From: Escherichia coli
GTDB lineage: Bacteria; Pseudomonadota; Gammaproteobacteria; Enterobacterales; Enterobacteriaceae
Reading direction: 5' to 3' (one strand)
Assembly: GCF_024502345.1 (NCBI RefSeq)
Contig: NZ_JALDNN010000001.1
Length of the DNA stretch: 64,000 bases
This document shows positions 27,070-33,709 of this stretch, piece after piece. The position numbers and the translations under genes were made by a program. Numbering within the stretch: position 1 is the first letter of the stretch; every line of letters starts with the position of its first letter. The notes beneath the pieces were generated by a model that was given only the letters and a program-made list of their open reading frames with translations, ran no database searches and had not been told where the DNA came from.

Positions 27070-27084
27070 TGGTGTCCCCTGCAG
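27070..27084. repeat. 15 nt direct repeat of the argW 3' end (TGGTGTCCCCTGCAG); candidate prophage attR core
   Basis: Exact match to the first 15 nt of the reverse-complemented argW 3' end at 38480-38494. Confidence 0.5.
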
Positions 27085-27157
27085 ACATCTACTTGAAGCG
27101 GCAGGGGATTGATTGGAATGGTATTTTTTAGATGTGAGAAATATTTTACCCGCTATT

Positions 27158-27358
27158 TTACCCATTGGCGCGGCTTAAGAGCTTATTTTTGAATTCACAA
27201 TGGTCACGATATAACCATCTTGCTCGCCCGTGGATAACTTTGGCTTTTGGAAGGTCTCCGGACTTAATCCGATCATAGATGAAGGTTTTACCGAAGCCAG
27301 TATCGGCCATGATGAATTTCAAATCAACCAGTGAATCAGGCTGTAGTTCGTGTTGCAT
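27158..27358 (-). CDS. torI: TorI-like excisionase / recombination directionality factor (AlpA family)
   Basis: 66 aa ORF (MQHELQPDSLVDLKFIMADTGFGKTF…), recalled as matching K-12 KplE1 TorI; sits at the prophage edge opposite intS. Confidence 0.8.
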   Translation of the reverse strand: MQHELQPDSLVDLKFIMADTGFGKTFIYDRIKSGDLPKAKVIHGRARWLYRDHCEFKNKLLSRANG

Positions 27359-27377
27359 GAGTGCTATCTCCGAATAG

Positions 27378-27393
27378 GGAATCGAACCTGCAA
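27378..27393. repeat. 16 nt fragment identical to the argW T-arm (GGAATCGAACCTGCAA); not a tRNA gene
   Basis: Matches argW positions 38494-38509 (reverse-complemented strand) but flanking sequence cannot form an acceptor or T stem. Confidence 0.4.
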
Positions 27394-27493
27394 ATCAGGC
27401 AATAAAAAACCGCATTGATGCGGCGATGGTAGGTCTGGATATCATTGAGCAATGAACAGGCATCATCGAGTGTGAGGCGGTGTTATTTTATGG

Positions 27494-27838
27494 TTAGTCC
27501 TTGCGTAGCTCTCTGATTCTTCTGTAAGTCTCTGGTGCTTTGTTTCCGTGTATCTTCATTTCCGACTTCAACAGAGCAACTAGGGAATCCCATTCGTTGA
27601 GGATTCCTTTGAATGCCGGAACGCGCTTTGCAACCTTGTCGAATGAATCTCTGATTTCTGGAATCTGCTCAACAAGCGCAACGCATCGTTGGAAATCGTC
27701 TGCGTCATGGGGAGCGCCGAAGTGATGACCATAGATATTCTTTTTCAGGCCACATGCGATTGAGGCAAGAGTTGCGCTACTGATGCCGACATCGCCAGTT
27801 GATTGCCATTTCAAAACCTTCATAGCCAAATCTGACAT
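27494..27838 (-). CDS. Hypothetical prophage protein
   Basis: 114 aa ORF in the pL-driven leftward gene string; no family recognised. Confidence 0.45.
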   Translation of the reverse strand: MSDLAMKVLKWQSTGDVGISSATLASIACGLKKNIYGHHFGAPHDADDFQRCVALVEQIPEIRDSFDKVAKRVPAFKGILNEWDSLVALLKSEMKIHGNKAPETYRRIRELRKD

Positions 27839-27938
27839 TTCTTGTCTCCATAAAACAAAACTCGCCGTAGCGAGTTCAGATAAAAGAAATCCCCGCGAGT
27901 GCGAGGATTGTTATTCACCTTTTACGGCAAGTTGCAGG

Positions 27939-28232
27939 TTAGCCACGGTTAACCTCCTGAGGCGGTTCTGGTAGCGGCATCCAGTGGGTTACTTTCGATG
28001 CCGGTTCTTCCCCATCGTCAGTAACTGCCCACCATTTGTTTCTCGACCAATCGTAATACCCTTCGAAGGTATCGCACTCAGTCCAGCCGTAAGACTTACC
28101 CCAACACCAAACATACTGTTTATCGTTCGGCATTCGCTCACTACAGCTTATCCAACCAGCGTTTGTTTCGTTAGCGTCCTTAGTGTGTTCATCTGGTTTA
28201 TATGAGCGAAGCATTTCGCTTAGCGTAATCAT
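27939..28232 (-). CDS. DUF551-domain phage protein
   Basis: 97 aa ORF ending …THWMPLPEPP, typical of DUF551; first ORF downstream of pL/nutL. Confidence 0.6.
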   Translation of the reverse strand: MITLSEMLRSYKPDEHTKDANETNAGWISCSERMPNDKQYVWCWGKSYGWTECDTFEGYYDWSRNKWWAVTDDGEEPASKVTHWMPLPEPPQEVNRG

Positions 28233-28295
28233 TGCAAAGCGCCTCCGCCGAGAAGGTTAGCTTCTGCATTCACCCCAAAGTTCACTTTGGTTATT

Positions 28296-28310
28296 GCGCT
28301 TTGTCAGCGC
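28296..28310 (-). promoter_or_regulatory. Putative nutL boxB hairpin (GCGCUGACAAAGCGC on the leftward transcript)
   Basis: Perfect 5 bp stem with GACAA loop about 75 nt downstream of the pL start; resembles P22-type boxB, not lambda boxB. Confidence 0.4.
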
Positions 28311-28378
28311 CGTAGATTCATATTTGAATCGTTGTATATTCACCGCCCTGGTGAGTAGTGCGTCCTGCTGATGTGTTT

Positions 28379-28441
28379 AGTATCACCGCCAGTGGTATTT
28401 ATGTCAACACCGCTAGAGATAATTCATCACCGCAGATGGTT
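28379..28441 (-). promoter_or_regulatory. Lambda-type pL promoter with OL1, OL2, OL3 operators
   Basis: OL1 TATCACCGCCAGTGGTA (28381-28397) identical to lambda; OL2 (28405-28421) and OL3 (28425-28441) each differ from lambda at one position; -35 TTGACA and -10 GATACT on the minus strand. Confidence 0.8.
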
Positions 28442-28627
28442 ATCTGTATGTTTTTTATATGAATTTATTTTTTGCAGTGGTGCATTGTTTGGTAGGTGAG
28501 AGATCTGAACTGCTATGTTTAGTGAGTTGTATCTATTTATTTTCAAATAGATACAATTGGTTATGTGTTCTTGGGTGAGGGGGATCGTGAGGCAAAGAAA
28601 ACCCGGCTCTGTGGCCGGGAATAACAT

Positions 28628-29006
28628 TTAGGAATCAAGGTCAGGTAGCATGATTTTCTCAATCAACGTCAATGCCCTTTGGTCTCGTTCAGCAAAATAT
28701 TTAGGAGCGTACTGAGGCAGCCACACTTCGTTGAAGTATTGTTTGAAATCTGCAATATTCGTTTGGGTATAGACGTACCGGGAATGTCCGGCCATCTGGG
28801 TACTCATGGTTATATGTTGGGAATGTCTTCGGCTCAACCCCCCGGTTGTCACGGAGCCATTGCGAGAAAACCCTACCCTCTGAAATATCAGGGACCATTT
28901 TTTCTGGCAGCGTATATCCGGCCTGTTCAAGTGGCGCAACCAAGTTAAACGTCAGTTCATTAAGCATAGAAAAGTGCGTATGAGGAACTCTGCCTCGGTT
29001 TGTCAT
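28628..29006 (-). pseudogene. Two overlapping ORFs in different frames downstream of the KilA-N ORF; possible frameshifted C-terminal part of an antirepressor-like gene
   Basis: ORFs 28701-29006 and 28628-28939 overlap out of frame and directly follow the KilA-N ORF. Confidence 0.3.
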
Positions 29007-29045
29007 ATACCGCTTAAGGTGGATAGGGAGTTCGGCAGGCGCTCT

Positions 29046-29387
29046 TTAACCTGACATCCACTCACGCACCCATCTCGATACTTGCACTGCAAATTTTGGA
29101 GATAGCCACTGAGCTAAATTAATTGCGATGTCTGGATGAACCCAAGTCCCTTGATTCTCTGCTCTTCCGCCTTTAAATGATTGAATTAACTCCGATATGG
29201 GAATCCCCATATCGCGTGATAATTCATCAAAAAAATCTTGTGTTGTTTTTAGTCGTGTATAGTCAGCAAGTAGCTTCCCCGCAGACTTGCACATCGCGGT
29301 GGCATTGATGTATCCGTCTTTGGTGCGAAGATGGATGACTTCTCCATCAACTTCTCTAGCGATTAATGCAAGTTGAAATTGTGTCAT
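29046..29387 (-). CDS. KilA-N domain protein
   Basis: 113 aa ORF with KilA-N-like N-terminal domain; immediately downstream of cI. Confidence 0.55.
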   Translation of the reverse strand: MTQFQLALIAREVDGEVIHLRTKDGYINATAMCKSAGKLLADYTRLKTTQDFFDELSRDMGIPISELIQSFKGGRAENQGTWVHPDIAINLAQWLSPKFAVQVSRWVREWMSG

Positions 29388-29418
29388 AAATCATCCTATT
29401 ACGTGAAAAATAAAACAA

Positions 29419-30135
<717 letters not shown>

Positions 30136-30142
30136 TTAAATC

Positions 30143-30207
30143 TATCACCGCAAGGGATAAACTTCTAACACCGTGCGTGTTGACTATTTTACCTCTAGCG
30201 GTGATAA
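30143..30207. promoter_or_regulatory. Lambda-type OR3-OR2-OR1 operators with PR and PRM
   Basis: OR3 (30143-30159) and OR2 (30165-30181) identical to lambda; OR1 TACCTCTAGCGGTGATA (30189-30205) has one G-to-A change; PR -35 TTGACT and -10 GATAAT. Confidence 0.85.
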
Positions 30208-30232
30208 TGGTTGCCTGTACTAAGGAGGTTGT

Positions 30233-30433
30233 ATGGAACAACGCATAACCCTGAAAGATTATGCAATACGCTTTGGGCAAACCAAGACGGCTAAAGATCT
30301 CGGCGTATATCAAAGCGCGATTAACAAGGCCATTCATGCAGGCCGAAAGATTTTTTTAACTATAAACGCTGATGGAAGCGTTTATGCGGAAGAAATAAAG
30401 CCCTTCCCAAGTAACAAAAAAACAACTGCATAA
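30233..30433 (+). CDS. cro: Lambda-type Cro repressor
   Basis: 66 aa [69 protein letters not shown], near-identical to lambda Cro. Confidence 0.9.
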
Positions 30434-30440
30434 GTAACAC

Positions 30441-30486
30441 CGCTCTTTTCACAATGGACATTCGTCCTACGTCGCTGACAAAGCGA
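30441..30486 (+). promoter_or_regulatory. Putative nutR (boxA-like CGCTCTTTT and boxB-like hairpin TCGCTGACAAAGCGA)
   Basis: Position immediately downstream of cro; boxB-like stem-loop with GACAA loop at 30472-30486; spacer longer than in lambda. Confidence 0.4.
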
Positions 30487-30570
30487 GCCCCAAGATATCT
30501 GACCAACTAAGGCCATATGCGTTTCCACGCATACCTTTCAACTAACTATTCACTATTGGAAAATTAACAA

Positions 30571-30867
30571 ATGACACAAGCAAGTTATAGCAAGCCAACA
30601 CAGCGAGAAATTGATCGCGCTGAAACTGATTTACTCATCAACCTGTCAACGCTTACCCAGCGCGGTCTGGCAAAGATGATTGGCTGTCATGAATCGAAGA
30701 TAAGCAGAACGGACTGGAGATTTATTGCTTCGGTCTTGTGTGCTTTCGGAATGGCATCAGACATCAGTCCGATTAGCAGGGCTTTTAAGTATGCATTGGA
30801 TGGAATCACAAAGAAAAAATCCCCGGCTGCCACCGAGGATTCTGAGCAAATTGATATGCAATTCTGA
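30571..30867 (+). CDS. CII-like transcriptional activator
   Basis: 98 aa ORF; C-terminus KKSPAATEDSEQIDMQF parallels lambda CII KKRPAATERSEQIQMEF; conserved position after cro/nutR. Confidence 0.6.
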   Translation: MTQASYSKPTQREIDRAETDLLINLSTLTQRGLAKMIGCHESKISRTDWRFIASVLCAFGMASDISPISRAFKYALDGITKKKSPAATEDSEQIDMQF

Positions 30868-31047
30868 GGGAATTACTGGATCAATCCACAGGAGTAATTA
30901 TGACAAAACGTCGTAAGAAATACCAGGAAAAAGAAGAGATTCGACACCCTGATTCACCTGAGGGATTAGTGGTAGCCGCAGCAAATAACAGGGCGTTCGC
31001 AGAGCGCCTTGTTGGTGTTTACAGACTAGCCAAAGCAGGAGTGAAAC

Positions 31048-32193
31048 ATGGGCGTCGTTAAGTTAGCTGATTACAGGCCTCAACTGGAGGTCGTGGAGCA
31101 TCGCGTGGCAGATACCGAAGATGGTTTCATGCGCGTTGCTAACGAGATTACTCAATATCCAGACCAGATTGAATCCGTTCGTAAAGGCATGGGATTCATT
31201 GATGAAGACCAGCGTAATTCTATCGGCACCTTAGCGGCTGGCGCACGCCTTGCGTCATCGTCTCCAGAAGCAATGCAATCATGGCTGCAAAACAACGCCG
31301 GTGAGTTAGCTCGTGTTGGCGTTAATCCTCATGACGTCGCTCAGATGTACCAACAGAACCCGCGGCAGTTCGTCGAATTTGTCGATCACCTGGGGATGAA
31401 CAGTCTCGGGCCCGAAAAATACTTTGACCTACAGGATAAAATGCAGGGTCGCCAGGTTACCATGCGCGGTCAGGATCTGGATTCGCAAACCGCCGCTCGG
31501 AATCAGGCAATCACAATGCGCGGACAAGATATCCAGGCGAATTTAGGTCAGCAGCGCATTAATCTGGACGCAGAAACAAACCGCATTAACAACGAAAATA
31601 AGCGCCTTGACCGGATGCTATCAGCAGAAACTAACGACCTGAAGCGCCAGGAAATACAGAGCCGCATAGCAGCCAACAACCAGCAGTTGCAGCAGAAGCA
31701 GCAAGCGCTAAATGATGGCTACAAAGACGGCATCAACACCCTCACAACCAGCATGTTCACTCTGAACGATATCGTTAGTTCTCCTTCACTTAAGAGCATT
31801 ACAGGCTTACGTGGAGTAATCCCCAACGTTCCAGGCTCACAGGCTGCAGACACTCAGGCACGACTTGATACCTTTAAATCACAAGCATACCTGACAGCGG
31901 TTCAGGCCATGCGAGGCATGGGCGCACTTTCTGATGCCGAGGGCAAAAAGCTCGACCAGGCTGTTGGTTCGCTGCAGAACTCGCAGAGCGAGGAGTCCTT
32001 TCGTCGCAACGCTGGCGTCATCCTGAACACGCTCAACCAGAAGCGTAATGAGGCGGTTGGTAAGTACGTTCAGCAAAACGGTATCAAGCGAGTGGAAGCG
32101 CCTCAGGCTTCTATAGATTACCTGAAGCAGCACCCCGAGCTGTCAATCGACTTCATTAATCGCTACGGATATCTTCCATCTTTGGGGCAGTAA
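31048..32193 (+). CDS. Hypothetical phage protein, Gln-rich with predicted coiled coil
   Basis: 381 aa ORF immediately upstream of, and abutting, the transglycosylase gene; no family recognised. Confidence 0.5.
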   Translation: MGVVKLADYRPQLEVVEHRVADTEDGFMRVANEITQYPDQIESVRKGMGFIDEDQRNSIGTLAAGARLASSSPEAMQSWLQNNAGELARVGVNPHDVAQMYQQNPRQFVEFVDHLGMNSLGPEKYFDLQDKMQGRQVTMRGQDLDSQTAARNQAITMRGQDIQANLGQQRINLDAETNRINNENKRLDRMLSAETNDLKRQEIQSRIAANNQQLQQKQQALNDGYKDGINTLTTSMFTLNDIVSSPSLKSITGLRGVIPNVPGSQAADTQARLDTFKSQAYLTAVQAMRGMGALSDAEGKKLDQAVGSLQNSQSEESFRRNAGVILNTLNQKRNEAVGKYVQQNGIKRVEAPQASIDYLKQHPELSIDFINRYGYLPSLGQ

Positions 32194-32649
32194 ATGGCTA
32201 ATTACCGTGATTTGTTAGAGCAGGCTGGCGCACGTTACGGTGTGCCAGAAGGGTTGATGACTGCACTGGGTGCCAAGGAGTCTTCTTACAACCCTGCCGC
32301 AGTAAGCTCCGCCGGGGCTGTAGGATTGACTCAGGTCATGCCTGGGACATGGCGTGATATGGGTTATACCGATGAGCAAATGCAAAACCCCGAATATCAA
32401 GCTGACGCTGGCGCGCGCTATCTGGCAAAGATGTACCAGCAGTTTGGTAACTGGCGTGACGCTCTTCAGGCTTATCACGACGGTCCCGGCAACGTTATGA
32501 AGGCAAAGCGTGGTGAATATACGCCAGGACCTGAAGGCCGCGGTTACGTTGATGATCGCTTTGCTCAATGGGCGGGTGACCCGGTGACAGACTCAACAGT
32601 CGAACAGCGCGCCACCTCTGCAAAGGTACCTTTGCTGATTGTTATCTGA
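32194..32649 (+). CDS. Phage lytic transglycosylase (SLT domain)
   Basis: 151 aa ORF with an SLT-domain-like catalytic region (…GAKESSYNPAAVSSAGAVGLTQVMPGTW…). Confidence 0.65.
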   Translation: MANYRDLLEQAGARYGVPEGLMTALGAKESSYNPAAVSSAGAVGLTQVMPGTWRDMGYTDEQMQNPEYQADAGARYLAKMYQQFGNWRDALQAYHDGPGNVMKAKRGEYTPGPEGRGYVDDRFAQWAGDPVTDSTVEQRATSAKVPLLIVI

Positions 32650-33127
32650 TGTTACTGCTACTGTTGCATGTTACCGTGTTTCCAAATCCTGAATTGCAGT
32701 TTGTATATGTGTCAACGCGTGTTGGGTAAGGTTGAGTTATAACAGGCTGGCGCGCTTTTTGCTCGATCGCTTGCATTGTGTTTACAGCCTGATAATTCAA
32801 TAAAGCCTGCTGGAATGCTTGGCTTTGTGCTATTTGTTGGGCTTGTTCTTGGCTTTGTAATTGAACATAAAGATTCTGAAGCTCAAGTCTTGCCTGTGCG
32901 TCACTTATCTTGCCTTCATCGACACCTTGCCCGAGCATCTTTGCAGCAAGGACATACAGCTTAGGTGTTGGTGCTGATGCCATGCGTGAGTCGTTCTTCA
33001 CACTGGCATCAAGGCAATTAGCCATATCGCTAAGCTTTTGATAGCGTTGTTCGCAACTTGCTTGATAGTCACTTACTTTTGCGCATCCAACCAGCAGAAG
33101 CGGGATAATTAACAGTGATTTTTTCAT
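32642..33127 (-). CDS. Phage-encoded lipoprotein (candidate lysogenic-conversion or exclusion moron)
   Basis: Lipobox LLVGC after the signal peptide MKKSLLIIPLLLVGC; start placed at the internal Met of ORF 32642-33163. Confidence 0.5.
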   Translation of the reverse strand: MKKSLLIIPLLLVGCAKVSDYQASCEQRYQKLSDMANCLDASVKNDSRMASAPTPKLYVLAAKMLGQGVDEGKISDAQARLELQNLYVQLQSQEQAQQIAQSQAFQQALLNYQAVNTMQAIEQKARQPVITQPYPTRVDTYTNCNSGFGNTVTCNSSSNIR

Positions 33128-33197
33128 ATGGTTAACTCTCCTTAGTTTTTCACAGGATATCATGAAGGCTATGCCATTTTAGCCGGAAACTAGATTT

Positions 33198-33464
33198 CTA
33201 TGTTTCCTTTTTATTATTGCTATACATGGTCTTAAGCGTTTCAAATACCATTTTCTTAACCATATCAGATTGTTGTTCTGCCATACGCTCTGCATCATCA
33301 ATGTAAACGGATGCAGAGCTTTGTTTAGCCAACGATTCTTCAATCGCTGCAATTATCTCTGAGTTCAGAGATCTGTTATTCATCTTCGCACGCTGCTTAA
33401 TTTTCGCGTGGAGTTCATGCGGAAGTCTCAAGTGAAACTGCGCCTCATCGTATTTGCTGTACAT
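33198..33464 (-). CDS. mnt: Mnt-like ribbon-helix-helix repressor
   Basis: C-terminal …DDAERMAEQQSDMVKKMVFETLK… parallels P22 Mnt …NDAERLADEQSELVKKMVFDTLK…; start placed at the internal Met (about 88 aa). Confidence 0.6.
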   Translation of the reverse strand: MYSKYDEAQFHLRLPHELHAKIKQRAKMNNRSLNSEIIAAIEESLAKQSSASVYIDDAERMAEQQSDMVKKMVFETLKTMYSNNKKET

Positions 33465-33709
33465 CCTTGATGCCTCACCAGTTGGGTGGAATGGCATCGT
33501 AACCTACTGGATAAATACTCAATAGTACCATTTCGGTATGCAATCACATCATGGTTGCATCATATCATCGTCTGGAGCAATGAAATGTCAGATATCACCG
33601 CAAATGTTGTGGTAAGCATGCCTTCGCAACTCTTCACTATGGCGCGTTCTTTTAAAGCGGTTGCCAATGGTAAAATTTATATCGGTAAAATTGACACTGA
33701 CCCGGTAAA

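Follow-up and report, generated by a model that had tools for sequence, protein, structure and literature searches.

The region downstream of cII in the 64,000-nucleotide stretch of Escherichia coli DNA analyzed here (the window) very probably represents a double deletion scar in a defective P22-like (Lederbergvirus, Sf101/IME10-type) prophage at argW, as judged by comparison with related phages and prophages. The original prediction had described three ORFs at this position, and all of them exist essentially where it placed them: an ORF of 53 aa at 30900-31061, one of 381 aa at 31048-32193, and one of 151 aa at 32194-32649. It had interpreted the latter two as a fused operon, consisting of an unrecognized protein and an SLT-type lytic transglycosylase. 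We found instead that the 381-aa ORF is a fusion between the start of the replication gene O and the distal part of a gene 20 homologue (O'-'gp20), and that the SLT ORF lacks 650-770 C-terminal residues. The main value of our analysis is therefore a correction: the seemingly novel operon of a "Gln-rich protein + SLT" next to cII is a pair of pseudogene fragments, which for this reason should be neither annotated nor pursued as a new module.

A base-level comparison showed that positions 29423-31151 of the window are collinear with the cI-cro-cII-gp53-O region of phage HK97, with 97.7% identity. At the protein level, 235 of 237 residues of cI, 63 of 66 residues of Cro, 95 of 98 residues of cII, and all 53 residues of gp53 are identical to their HK97 counterparts, as are residues 1-34 of O (34/34). 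The gene cI, which is of the lambda/HK97 type, cro, and a pR-like promoter upstream of cro (TTGACT-17-GATAAT, 30180-30208, plus strand) are all intact, and this promoter was the only one recognizable in a consensus scan that could drive the fragments. The intact cII homologue (30571-30867, plus strand) is followed by the 53-aa ORF on the same strand. The product of this ORF starts with MTKRRKKYQEKEE, is a homologue of HK97 gp53, and also matches phrog_1331 at 53 of 53 positions. The ORF overlaps the start of O by 14 nt, an arrangement that is native to the early-right operons of HK97-type phages. O is preceded by its ribosome-binding site, AGGAGTGAAACATG, which is now located upstream of the fusion ORF. 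Only the start and the first 34 codons of this HK97-type gene are present (O', 31048-31151, plus strand), while the remaining 239 codons are deleted. Hence, the fragments are not joined directly to cII, as originally proposed, because the gp53 ORF and 34 codons of O intervene and the break is located inside O at 31149-31151. The absence of O and P behind cII had been seen correctly: in place of a lambda-type full-length O followed by P, 34 of 273 O codons are left and the remnant contains no helicase or loader gene. Neither an N nor a Q gene is left in the remnant.

When the segment 30500-33600 was compared to phage genomes by megablast, no phage record spanned all of it. The matching blocks abut: an HK97-like block covering cII-gp53-O extends to query position 652, and a block similar to gene 20 and the next gene of Sf101 and IME10 starts at position 650. 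Accordingly, the HK97-type and Sf101-type alignments overlap by 3 bp. Positions 31149-32629 of the window are collinear with genes 12-13 of Sf101 at 98.7% and with IME10 at 99.6% identity (6 differences). By base-level comparison, we mapped deletion junction 1 to 31149-31151, where the trinucleotide TAC is common to both parents. The parental sequences are GAGATTAC/CGACAG for the HK97-type O and TTGGCTAC/TCAATATCC for the Sf101-type gene 20. Their combination in the window, GAGATTAC/TCAATATCC, indicates a crossover within the 3-bp TAC microhomology. Both break points are located on third codon positions, and the two genes are therefore joined in frame. Examples of junction-specific k-mers are ACGAGATTACTCAATATCC and CAAAGGTACCTTTGCTG.

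An alignment with HK97 O and Sf101 gp12 resolves the 381-aa ORF into O(1-34)::gp20(97-443), that is, 34 + 347 residues. Based on DNA identity, its larger part ('gene 20, 31150-32193, plus strand) consists of codons 97-443 and the stop codon of an Sf101/IME10-type gene for a DNA-ejection protein of the P22 gp20 family, the first 96 codons of which are missing. Residues 35-381 share ∼98% protein identity with residues 97-443 of Sf101 gp12, from which they differ by few substitutions, and 36% identity over ∼170 aa with residues 93-263 of P22 gp20 (BLASTP E value 8e-23). Profile comparisons agree with this subdivision. Residues 34-163 match positions 87-217 of the 218-position Pfam model PF16928 (Inj_translocase, E value 4e-30), and residues 34-375 match positions 98-435 of the 435-position profile phrog_2534 (E value 1e-140), which carries the annotation "released from the phage upon host infection". 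Three PHROGs described as "replication initiation O-like" match residues 1-35. Pfam and the PHROGs thus independently place the profile break at residue 34. The product is Gln-rich (10.8% Gln), in line with the original description, but it is not unrecognized: clear homology of this ORF to a characterized protein had been named beforehand as one of the observations that would refute the original prediction, and such homology was found for residues 35-381. The relationship to the gp20-type ejection proteins of P22 is evident at the family level but does not extend over the full length, since positions 1-86 of the Pfam model are missing. The corresponding head-assembly operon (14-7-20-16), which would allow packaging into procapsids, is not present either: the remnant lacks gene 7 as well as the genes for portal, scaffold and coat. 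A PDB sequence search with the gene-20 homologue returned only chance coiled-coil matches (E > 0.1), and NCBIfam contains no model for the 381-aa ORF or for Sf101 gp12.

The SLT ORF starts directly after the stop codon of the fusion ORF (TAAATG). Comparison with Sf101 and IME10 identified its first 145 codons (SLT-gene 16', 32194-32629, plus strand) as the beginning of a gene-16 ejection-protein homologue, which comprises 911 aa in Sf101 (gp13) and 797 aa in IME10. The prediction of an SLT enzyme holds with respect to the domain, which is complete: residues 7-110 match positions 2-110 of the 117-position Pfam model PF01464 (E value 2e-26), and Glu29, located in the sequence GAKESS, aligns with the catalytic Glu478 (ARQES) of E. 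coli Slt70. A complete domain with the catalytic Glu in an E-S motif assigns the fragment to the SLT/GH23 proteins (PF01464). In contrast, only positions 1-145 of the 576 positions of phrog_21143 are matched, and full-length relatives are matched only through residue 145. The N-terminus of T7 gp16 cuts peptidoglycan, and the SLT domain of the intact phage protein presumably acts in the same way; the fragment shows a weak but significant similarity to residues 11-126 of this protein (E value 3e-4). Residues 221-353 of Sf101 gp13, a segment absent here, are 81% identical to residues 53-189 of P22 gp16, which identifies the SLT gene as a gene-16 homologue with an extra N-terminal SLT module. The fragment itself has neither the conserved core nor the C-terminal body of the P22 gp16 family, because its homology to Sf101 and IME10 ends at residue 145 and the gp16 core lies beyond the deletion. 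No signal peptide is visible by direct reading of the N-terminus (MANYRDLLEQAGARYG...; MANYRDLLEQAG...). The 665-aa gp16-type proteins of VSe13 and ZY22049 do not share the SLT domain, despite the annotation of VSe13.

Deletion junction 2 is located at 32616-32635, with the crossover at a TAC at 32627-32629 that is preceded by an 11/12 near-repeat (CCTCTGCAAAGG versus CCTCTGCATAGG). The left parent reads CCTCTGCAAAGGTAC/ATCCTC, and the right parent, which we found in the prophages of strains ZY22049 and GPEC87-32-644, reads CCTCTGCATAGGCGATAC/CTTTGCTG and is situated ∼60 bp past the stop codon of gene 16. The window contains CCTCTGCAAAGGTAC/CTTTGCTG. This join creates a perfect 16-bp palindrome, GCAAAGGTACCTTTGC (32620-32635), which was flagged by the terminator scan. 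With IME10 or Sf101 as the model, the size of the deletion amounts to ∼2.0 kb or ∼2.4 kb, respectively. Behind the junction, six read-through codons (PLLIVI) and a stop codon (32630-32649, plus strand) are derived from the intergenic/3' region of a convergent lipoprotein gene; these codons belong to no native protein, and their stop overlaps that of the lipoprotein gene. The latter is intact (32642-33127, minus strand), encodes a protein of 161 aa with the lipobox LVGC that matches phrog_6067 at 161 of 161 positions, and forms the right-hand flank of deletion 2. It occupies the position used for sieA in P22, and a comparison of the lipoprotein with P22 SieA revealed no similarity and no alignment. 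Positions 32615-33725 match the region from the lipoprotein gene via mnt to the start of the tailspike gene in P22-like prophages with 98.8% identity.

The two fragments are part of a prophage remnant of 11.4 kb (27070-38499), or 10.1 kb without the IS element. In addition to them, it contains torI, a few early-left ORFs, a broken bstA-like gene, cI, cro, cII, gp53, the lipoprotein gene, mnt/arc, a tailspike gene split by the IS element, and intS. All virion genes are lost, and no capsid, portal, tail or gene-7 gene is left. The remnant shows the features of the KplE1/CPS-53-type defective prophages at argW: the gene for tRNA-Arg(CCU) (argW, 38480-38554) with intS adjacent to it (37161-38354), torI at the distal end (27158-27358), and a duplicated 15-bp att core, TGGTGTCCCCTGCAG, found at 27070 and at 38480, the 3' end of argW. 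IntS, TorI and argW constitute the known recombination module of KplE1, HK620 and Sf6 (PMC3509656). Moreover, the two ends of the remnant align with the attP-torI and intS-attP segments of IME10, and these alignments share 15 bp. The family of the two ORFs, which had been considered unclear, can be specified from these comparisons, as they are gene-20 and gene-16 homologues of Sf101/IME10-type P22-like phages. The proposed derivation from a podoviral ejection or peptidoglycan-breaching module was thus right, but the module is not intact, because both genes are truncated. A conjugative element had been offered as another source; we rejected this origin, which nothing supports, as the best matches are all Lederbergvirus phages and prophages.

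Prophages with different deletions are found at argW in other E. coli strains. In strain ZY22049, cI is joined to a helicase gene, behind which a gp4 fragment is located, and in strain GPEC87-32-644 the early-left genes abut a 5'-truncated gene 16. Such a distribution is the pattern that would be expected of repeated independent decay. An apparently complete P22-like prophage is found at argW in E. coli O26 RM10386. Its genes are arranged in the order O-P-nin-Q-lysis-terminase-portal-scaffold-coat-4-10-26-14-7-20-16, followed by lipoprotein-arc-tailspike-acyltransferase-intS-argW. The gp53-O' sequence (99.6%) and, with 100% identity over 122 nt, the gene-20 junction sequence are both present in this prophage and have the same orientation. 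The distance between these two parental sequences is 21,054 bp (20.6 kb on the IME10 model), from which we conclude that deletion 1 removed the replication, nin, lysis, and head/tail genes.

The order of the two events is documented by the metagenome contig L009, which is 99.98% identical to positions 28537-32629 of the window, including junction 1. Beyond 32629, it continues with an intact SLT-gp16 gene that is 99.5% identical to that of Sf101. Since L009 carries only junction 1, the decay was stepwise, and deletion 1 took place before deletion 2 or at least exists without it. We also looked for one genome that unites an HK97-type O, an Sf101-type gene 20 together with SLT-gp16, and the lipoprotein gene, but no such genome was identified. 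The lipoprotein gene is missing from IME10 and Sf101, and the prophages of ZY22049 and O26 RM10386 have a different gp16 N-terminus. The ancestor was therefore reconstructed from several relatives.

Based on this reconstruction, the ancestral prophage would have had the gene order argW-intS-tailspike-mnt-lipoprotein-16-20-7-...head genes...-lysis-Q-nin-P-O-gp53-cII-cro-cI-...-torI-attR. Deletion 1, an illegitimate recombination mediated by the TAC microhomology, would have eliminated ∼21 kb, beginning with codon 35 of O and ending with codon 96 of gene 20. The in-frame outcome of this event would be a matter of chance (1 in 3), and its product would be the 381-aa O(1-34)::gp20(97-443) ORF, which keeps the ribosome-binding site and the start codon of O. 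Deletion 2, at a 15-nt imperfect repeat, would have started at codon 146 of the gene-16 homologue and extended ∼60 bp beyond the stop codon of this gene, leaving the N-terminal SLT domain and six junk codons. Microhomology-mediated deletion in defective prophages at argW is well known, and the locus is a case of ordinary prophage decay, an event of an already known kind. No evidence contradicts the deletion model.

At least 10 contigs of independent assemblies from ENA and Logan encode the exact 381-aa sequence. These contigs share the context cscA-cscK-cscB ... intS-yfdC-mlaA and are 100% identical to the window except for the IS insertion. Because both the exact protein and its context recur in at least 10 independent assemblies, and because the exact 151-aa product is deposited at NCBI (KUG73479.1, a "hypothetical protein" of E. 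coli), we rejected an assembly artefact. Junction 1 was not found in any of 5426 complete E. coli genomes and is a rare, clone-specific allele. Within 1481 nt, we detected only two lineage-specific substitutions, G109V and a synonymous change at Q69. This near-absence of lineage-specific changes relative to infectious phages indicates that the scar is recent. With only two substitutions, a selection test is powerless and relaxed selection is not demonstrable.

Instead of an internal deletion, junction 1 could result from illegitimate recombination involving two separate prophages, one of them lambdoid and HK97-like and the other P22-like, a scenario that is compatible with the lack of a sequenced relative pairing HK97-type O with Sf101-type gene 20 in exactly this way, and with the finding that gp53 is shared by IME10 but O only over its first 31 nt. 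However, the order and orientation of the flanking genes are exactly those of one P22-like argW prophage, and both att ends match one IME10-like phage. P22-like argW prophages with the same cI region exist, and the element of O26 RM10386 unites an HK97-type gp53-O with the matching gene-20 segment at a distance of 21 kb, which makes an exchange between two prophages highly improbable. There is virtually no chance that the two genes represent an intact module for ejection or the breaching of peptidoglycan that belongs to a new family and was acquired beside cII. The two ORFs are indeed adjacent and tightly packed, and the SLT domain is real, but both align only partly to longer, well-populated phage proteins, their breaks fall on junctions at the DNA level, and the first 34 residues of the 381-aa ORF are those of the replication protein O.

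Alternatively, the O'-'gp20 fusion and/or the free SLT domain could have been domesticated and kept for use upon derepression of pR, either to interfere with superinfecting P22-like phages by co-packaging of the truncated gp20 or to exert an SOS-linked effect on the cell wall. In agreement with this idea, neither ORF is interrupted, the in-frame fusion retains the ribosome-binding site of O, the SLT start follows directly after the stop, and the complete SLT domain includes the catalytic Glu. Furthermore, cI, cro and the pR-like promoter are intact, and at least 10 assemblies contain the identical locus. Yet an in-frame join is expected by chance in one of three cases. The copies are essentially identical, with 2 lineage-specific changes, one of them non-synonymous, and the recent age of the scar makes its persistence uninformative about selection. 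In addition, the SLT fragment is devoid of a signal peptide and a virion for its export is lacking, its truncation is not conserved in the lineage, as demonstrated by L009, and quite different deletions are found at argW in other strains, as predicted by neutral decay. We therefore consider domestication very unlikely. Retention as an SOS-inducible interference module, in which truncated gp20 would be co-packaged upon infection by, or induction of, a related P22-like phage and thereby poison the ejection apparatus of this phage, is scarcely probable; alternatively, a new role of the SLT fragment in the cytoplasm might account for retention. Positive support exists for neither idea.

Intact P22-like phages package gp7, gp20 and gp16 into the capsid and eject them to form a trans-envelope conduit for the DNA (PMC8954989, PMC8402733), and ORF11-13 of Sf101 have been described as an injection module (PMC4159516). 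In the double deletion scar, nothing is left for replication, lysis or virion assembly, and the fragments therefore cannot act as ejection proteins; they presumably have neither a virion nor a replication function. Located downstream of the cI-repressed pR, they should be transcribable only upon derepression. In this case, the fusion ORF would be translated from the ribosome-binding site of O and the SLT fragment by translational coupling (TAAATG). Since the SLT fragment possesses no signal peptide and there is no capsid to deliver it to the periplasm, it should be inert. The open ORFs, the complete SLT domain and the intact cI/pR may leave room for expression and for some residual activity.

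The pieces of the region all fall into known families, namely HK97 gp53, lambda-type O, P22 gp20/Inj_translocase, and an SLT-bearing gp16 homologue. Neither the 381-aa nor the 151-aa piece represents a full-length protein in its morphogenetic context. The 381-aa ORF has the Gln/Asn-rich, helix-prone composition of P22 gp20, Sf6 gp12 and Sf101 gp12 (PF16928; T7 gp15 is a functional analogue). It differs from P22 gp20 and Sf101 gp12 in that 34 residues of O replace the first 96, and it cannot be packaged or ejected because there is no gene 7 upstream and no capsid gene anywhere. Likewise, residues 1-145 of the 151-aa ORF are identical or nearly so to Sf101 gp13 and the IME10 gene-16 homologue, whereas the gp16-like segment and the membrane/DNA-channel part of these proteins are missing and six unrelated codons are added. 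The start codon, ribosome-binding site, gp53 overlap and first 34 residues are those of HK97 O, but only 34 of the 273 residues of a lambda/HK97 O remain and P (helicase loader/helicase) is gone. The lambda origin lies in the part of O that is lost here. With the KplE1/CPS-53-type prophages, the remnant shares the integration site, intS next to argW, the distal torI and the 15-bp att core; it is a further independently decayed remnant, like those of ZY22049 and GPEC87-32-644, and differs from them in its pair of deletions. With both junctions resolved to the base, an intermediate captured in L009, and an intact prophage occupying this attachment site for reference, the locus provides a clean example of stepwise decay. 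A further observation concerns the intact phages and not this locus: in the Sf101/IME10 subgroup of P22-like phages, the gene-16 homologue carries a T7-gp16-like SLT domain.

In P22-like phages of the Sf101/IME10 subgroup, the gene-16 homologue, the ejection protein of which the remnant keeps only the SLT-bearing N-terminal fragment, bears an SLT domain at its N-terminus. The SLT-bearing homologue comprises 911 aa in Sf101 (L001, 7046-9781) and 797 aa in IME10 (L014, 31064-33457), and in the latter the SLT N-terminus is joined to a C-terminal body of the Sf6/VSe13 type. At an identity of at least 99%, the SLT module was found in only about 10 phage records.

At the position occupied by sieA in P22, the remnant instead carries a gene on the minus strand (32642-33127) for a Gln-rich lipoprotein of 161 aa with the lipobox LVGC, which is unrelated to SieA and matches PHROG 6067, a family of unknown function. 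This gene was found on more than 1000 contigs. Since it is intact across several argW remnants that decayed differently, we regard it as a candidate for a lysogen-expressed moron or exclusion gene. A BstA-like abortive-infection gene adjoins cI (28460-29387, minus strand) and appears to be broken into three ORFs, all on the minus strand: a KilA-N ORF (29046-29387) and two overlapping ORFs in different frames (28701-29006 and 28628-28939), which matched positions 160-226 and 236-272 of the PADLOC BstA profile.

The sequences on both sides of the remnant (1-26600 and 38600-64000) are assigned to ordinary E. coli chromosome, based on ORF sizes and order and on comparison with annotated E. coli genomes, and no unusual feature was seen at this level. 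The left flank contains dsdA and the sucrose genes cscA/cscK/cscB, the right flank yfdC, mlaA, fadL, fadI/fadJ, sixA and the yfc fimbrial genes.

The tailspike gene is present in two parts (33585-33724 and 35061-37026), interrupted by a 1336-bp element of the IS3 family (IS2-group-like; 33725-35060), the ends of which were defined by comparison with other E. coli copies. The element is bordered by the direct repeat TCCTGAAAACCAGAT (33710-33724 and 35061-35075), which measures 15 bp, or 17 bp if ambiguous end bases are included. Direct repeats of IS3-family elements are usually 3-5 bp, making this one unusually long. The compared contigs L004 and L006 carry the site without the IS, with one repeat copy and a tailspike of 696 aa.

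The argW T-arm sequence GGAATCGAACCTGCAA (38494-38509) recurs without mismatch over 16 nt at 27378-27393. This second copy lies immediately upstream of torI and is distinct from the 15-nt att core (27070-27084), so that the tRNA 3' segment is represented by one half on either side of torI. The copy may be left over from an earlier integration event, or may belong to the phage attP arm.
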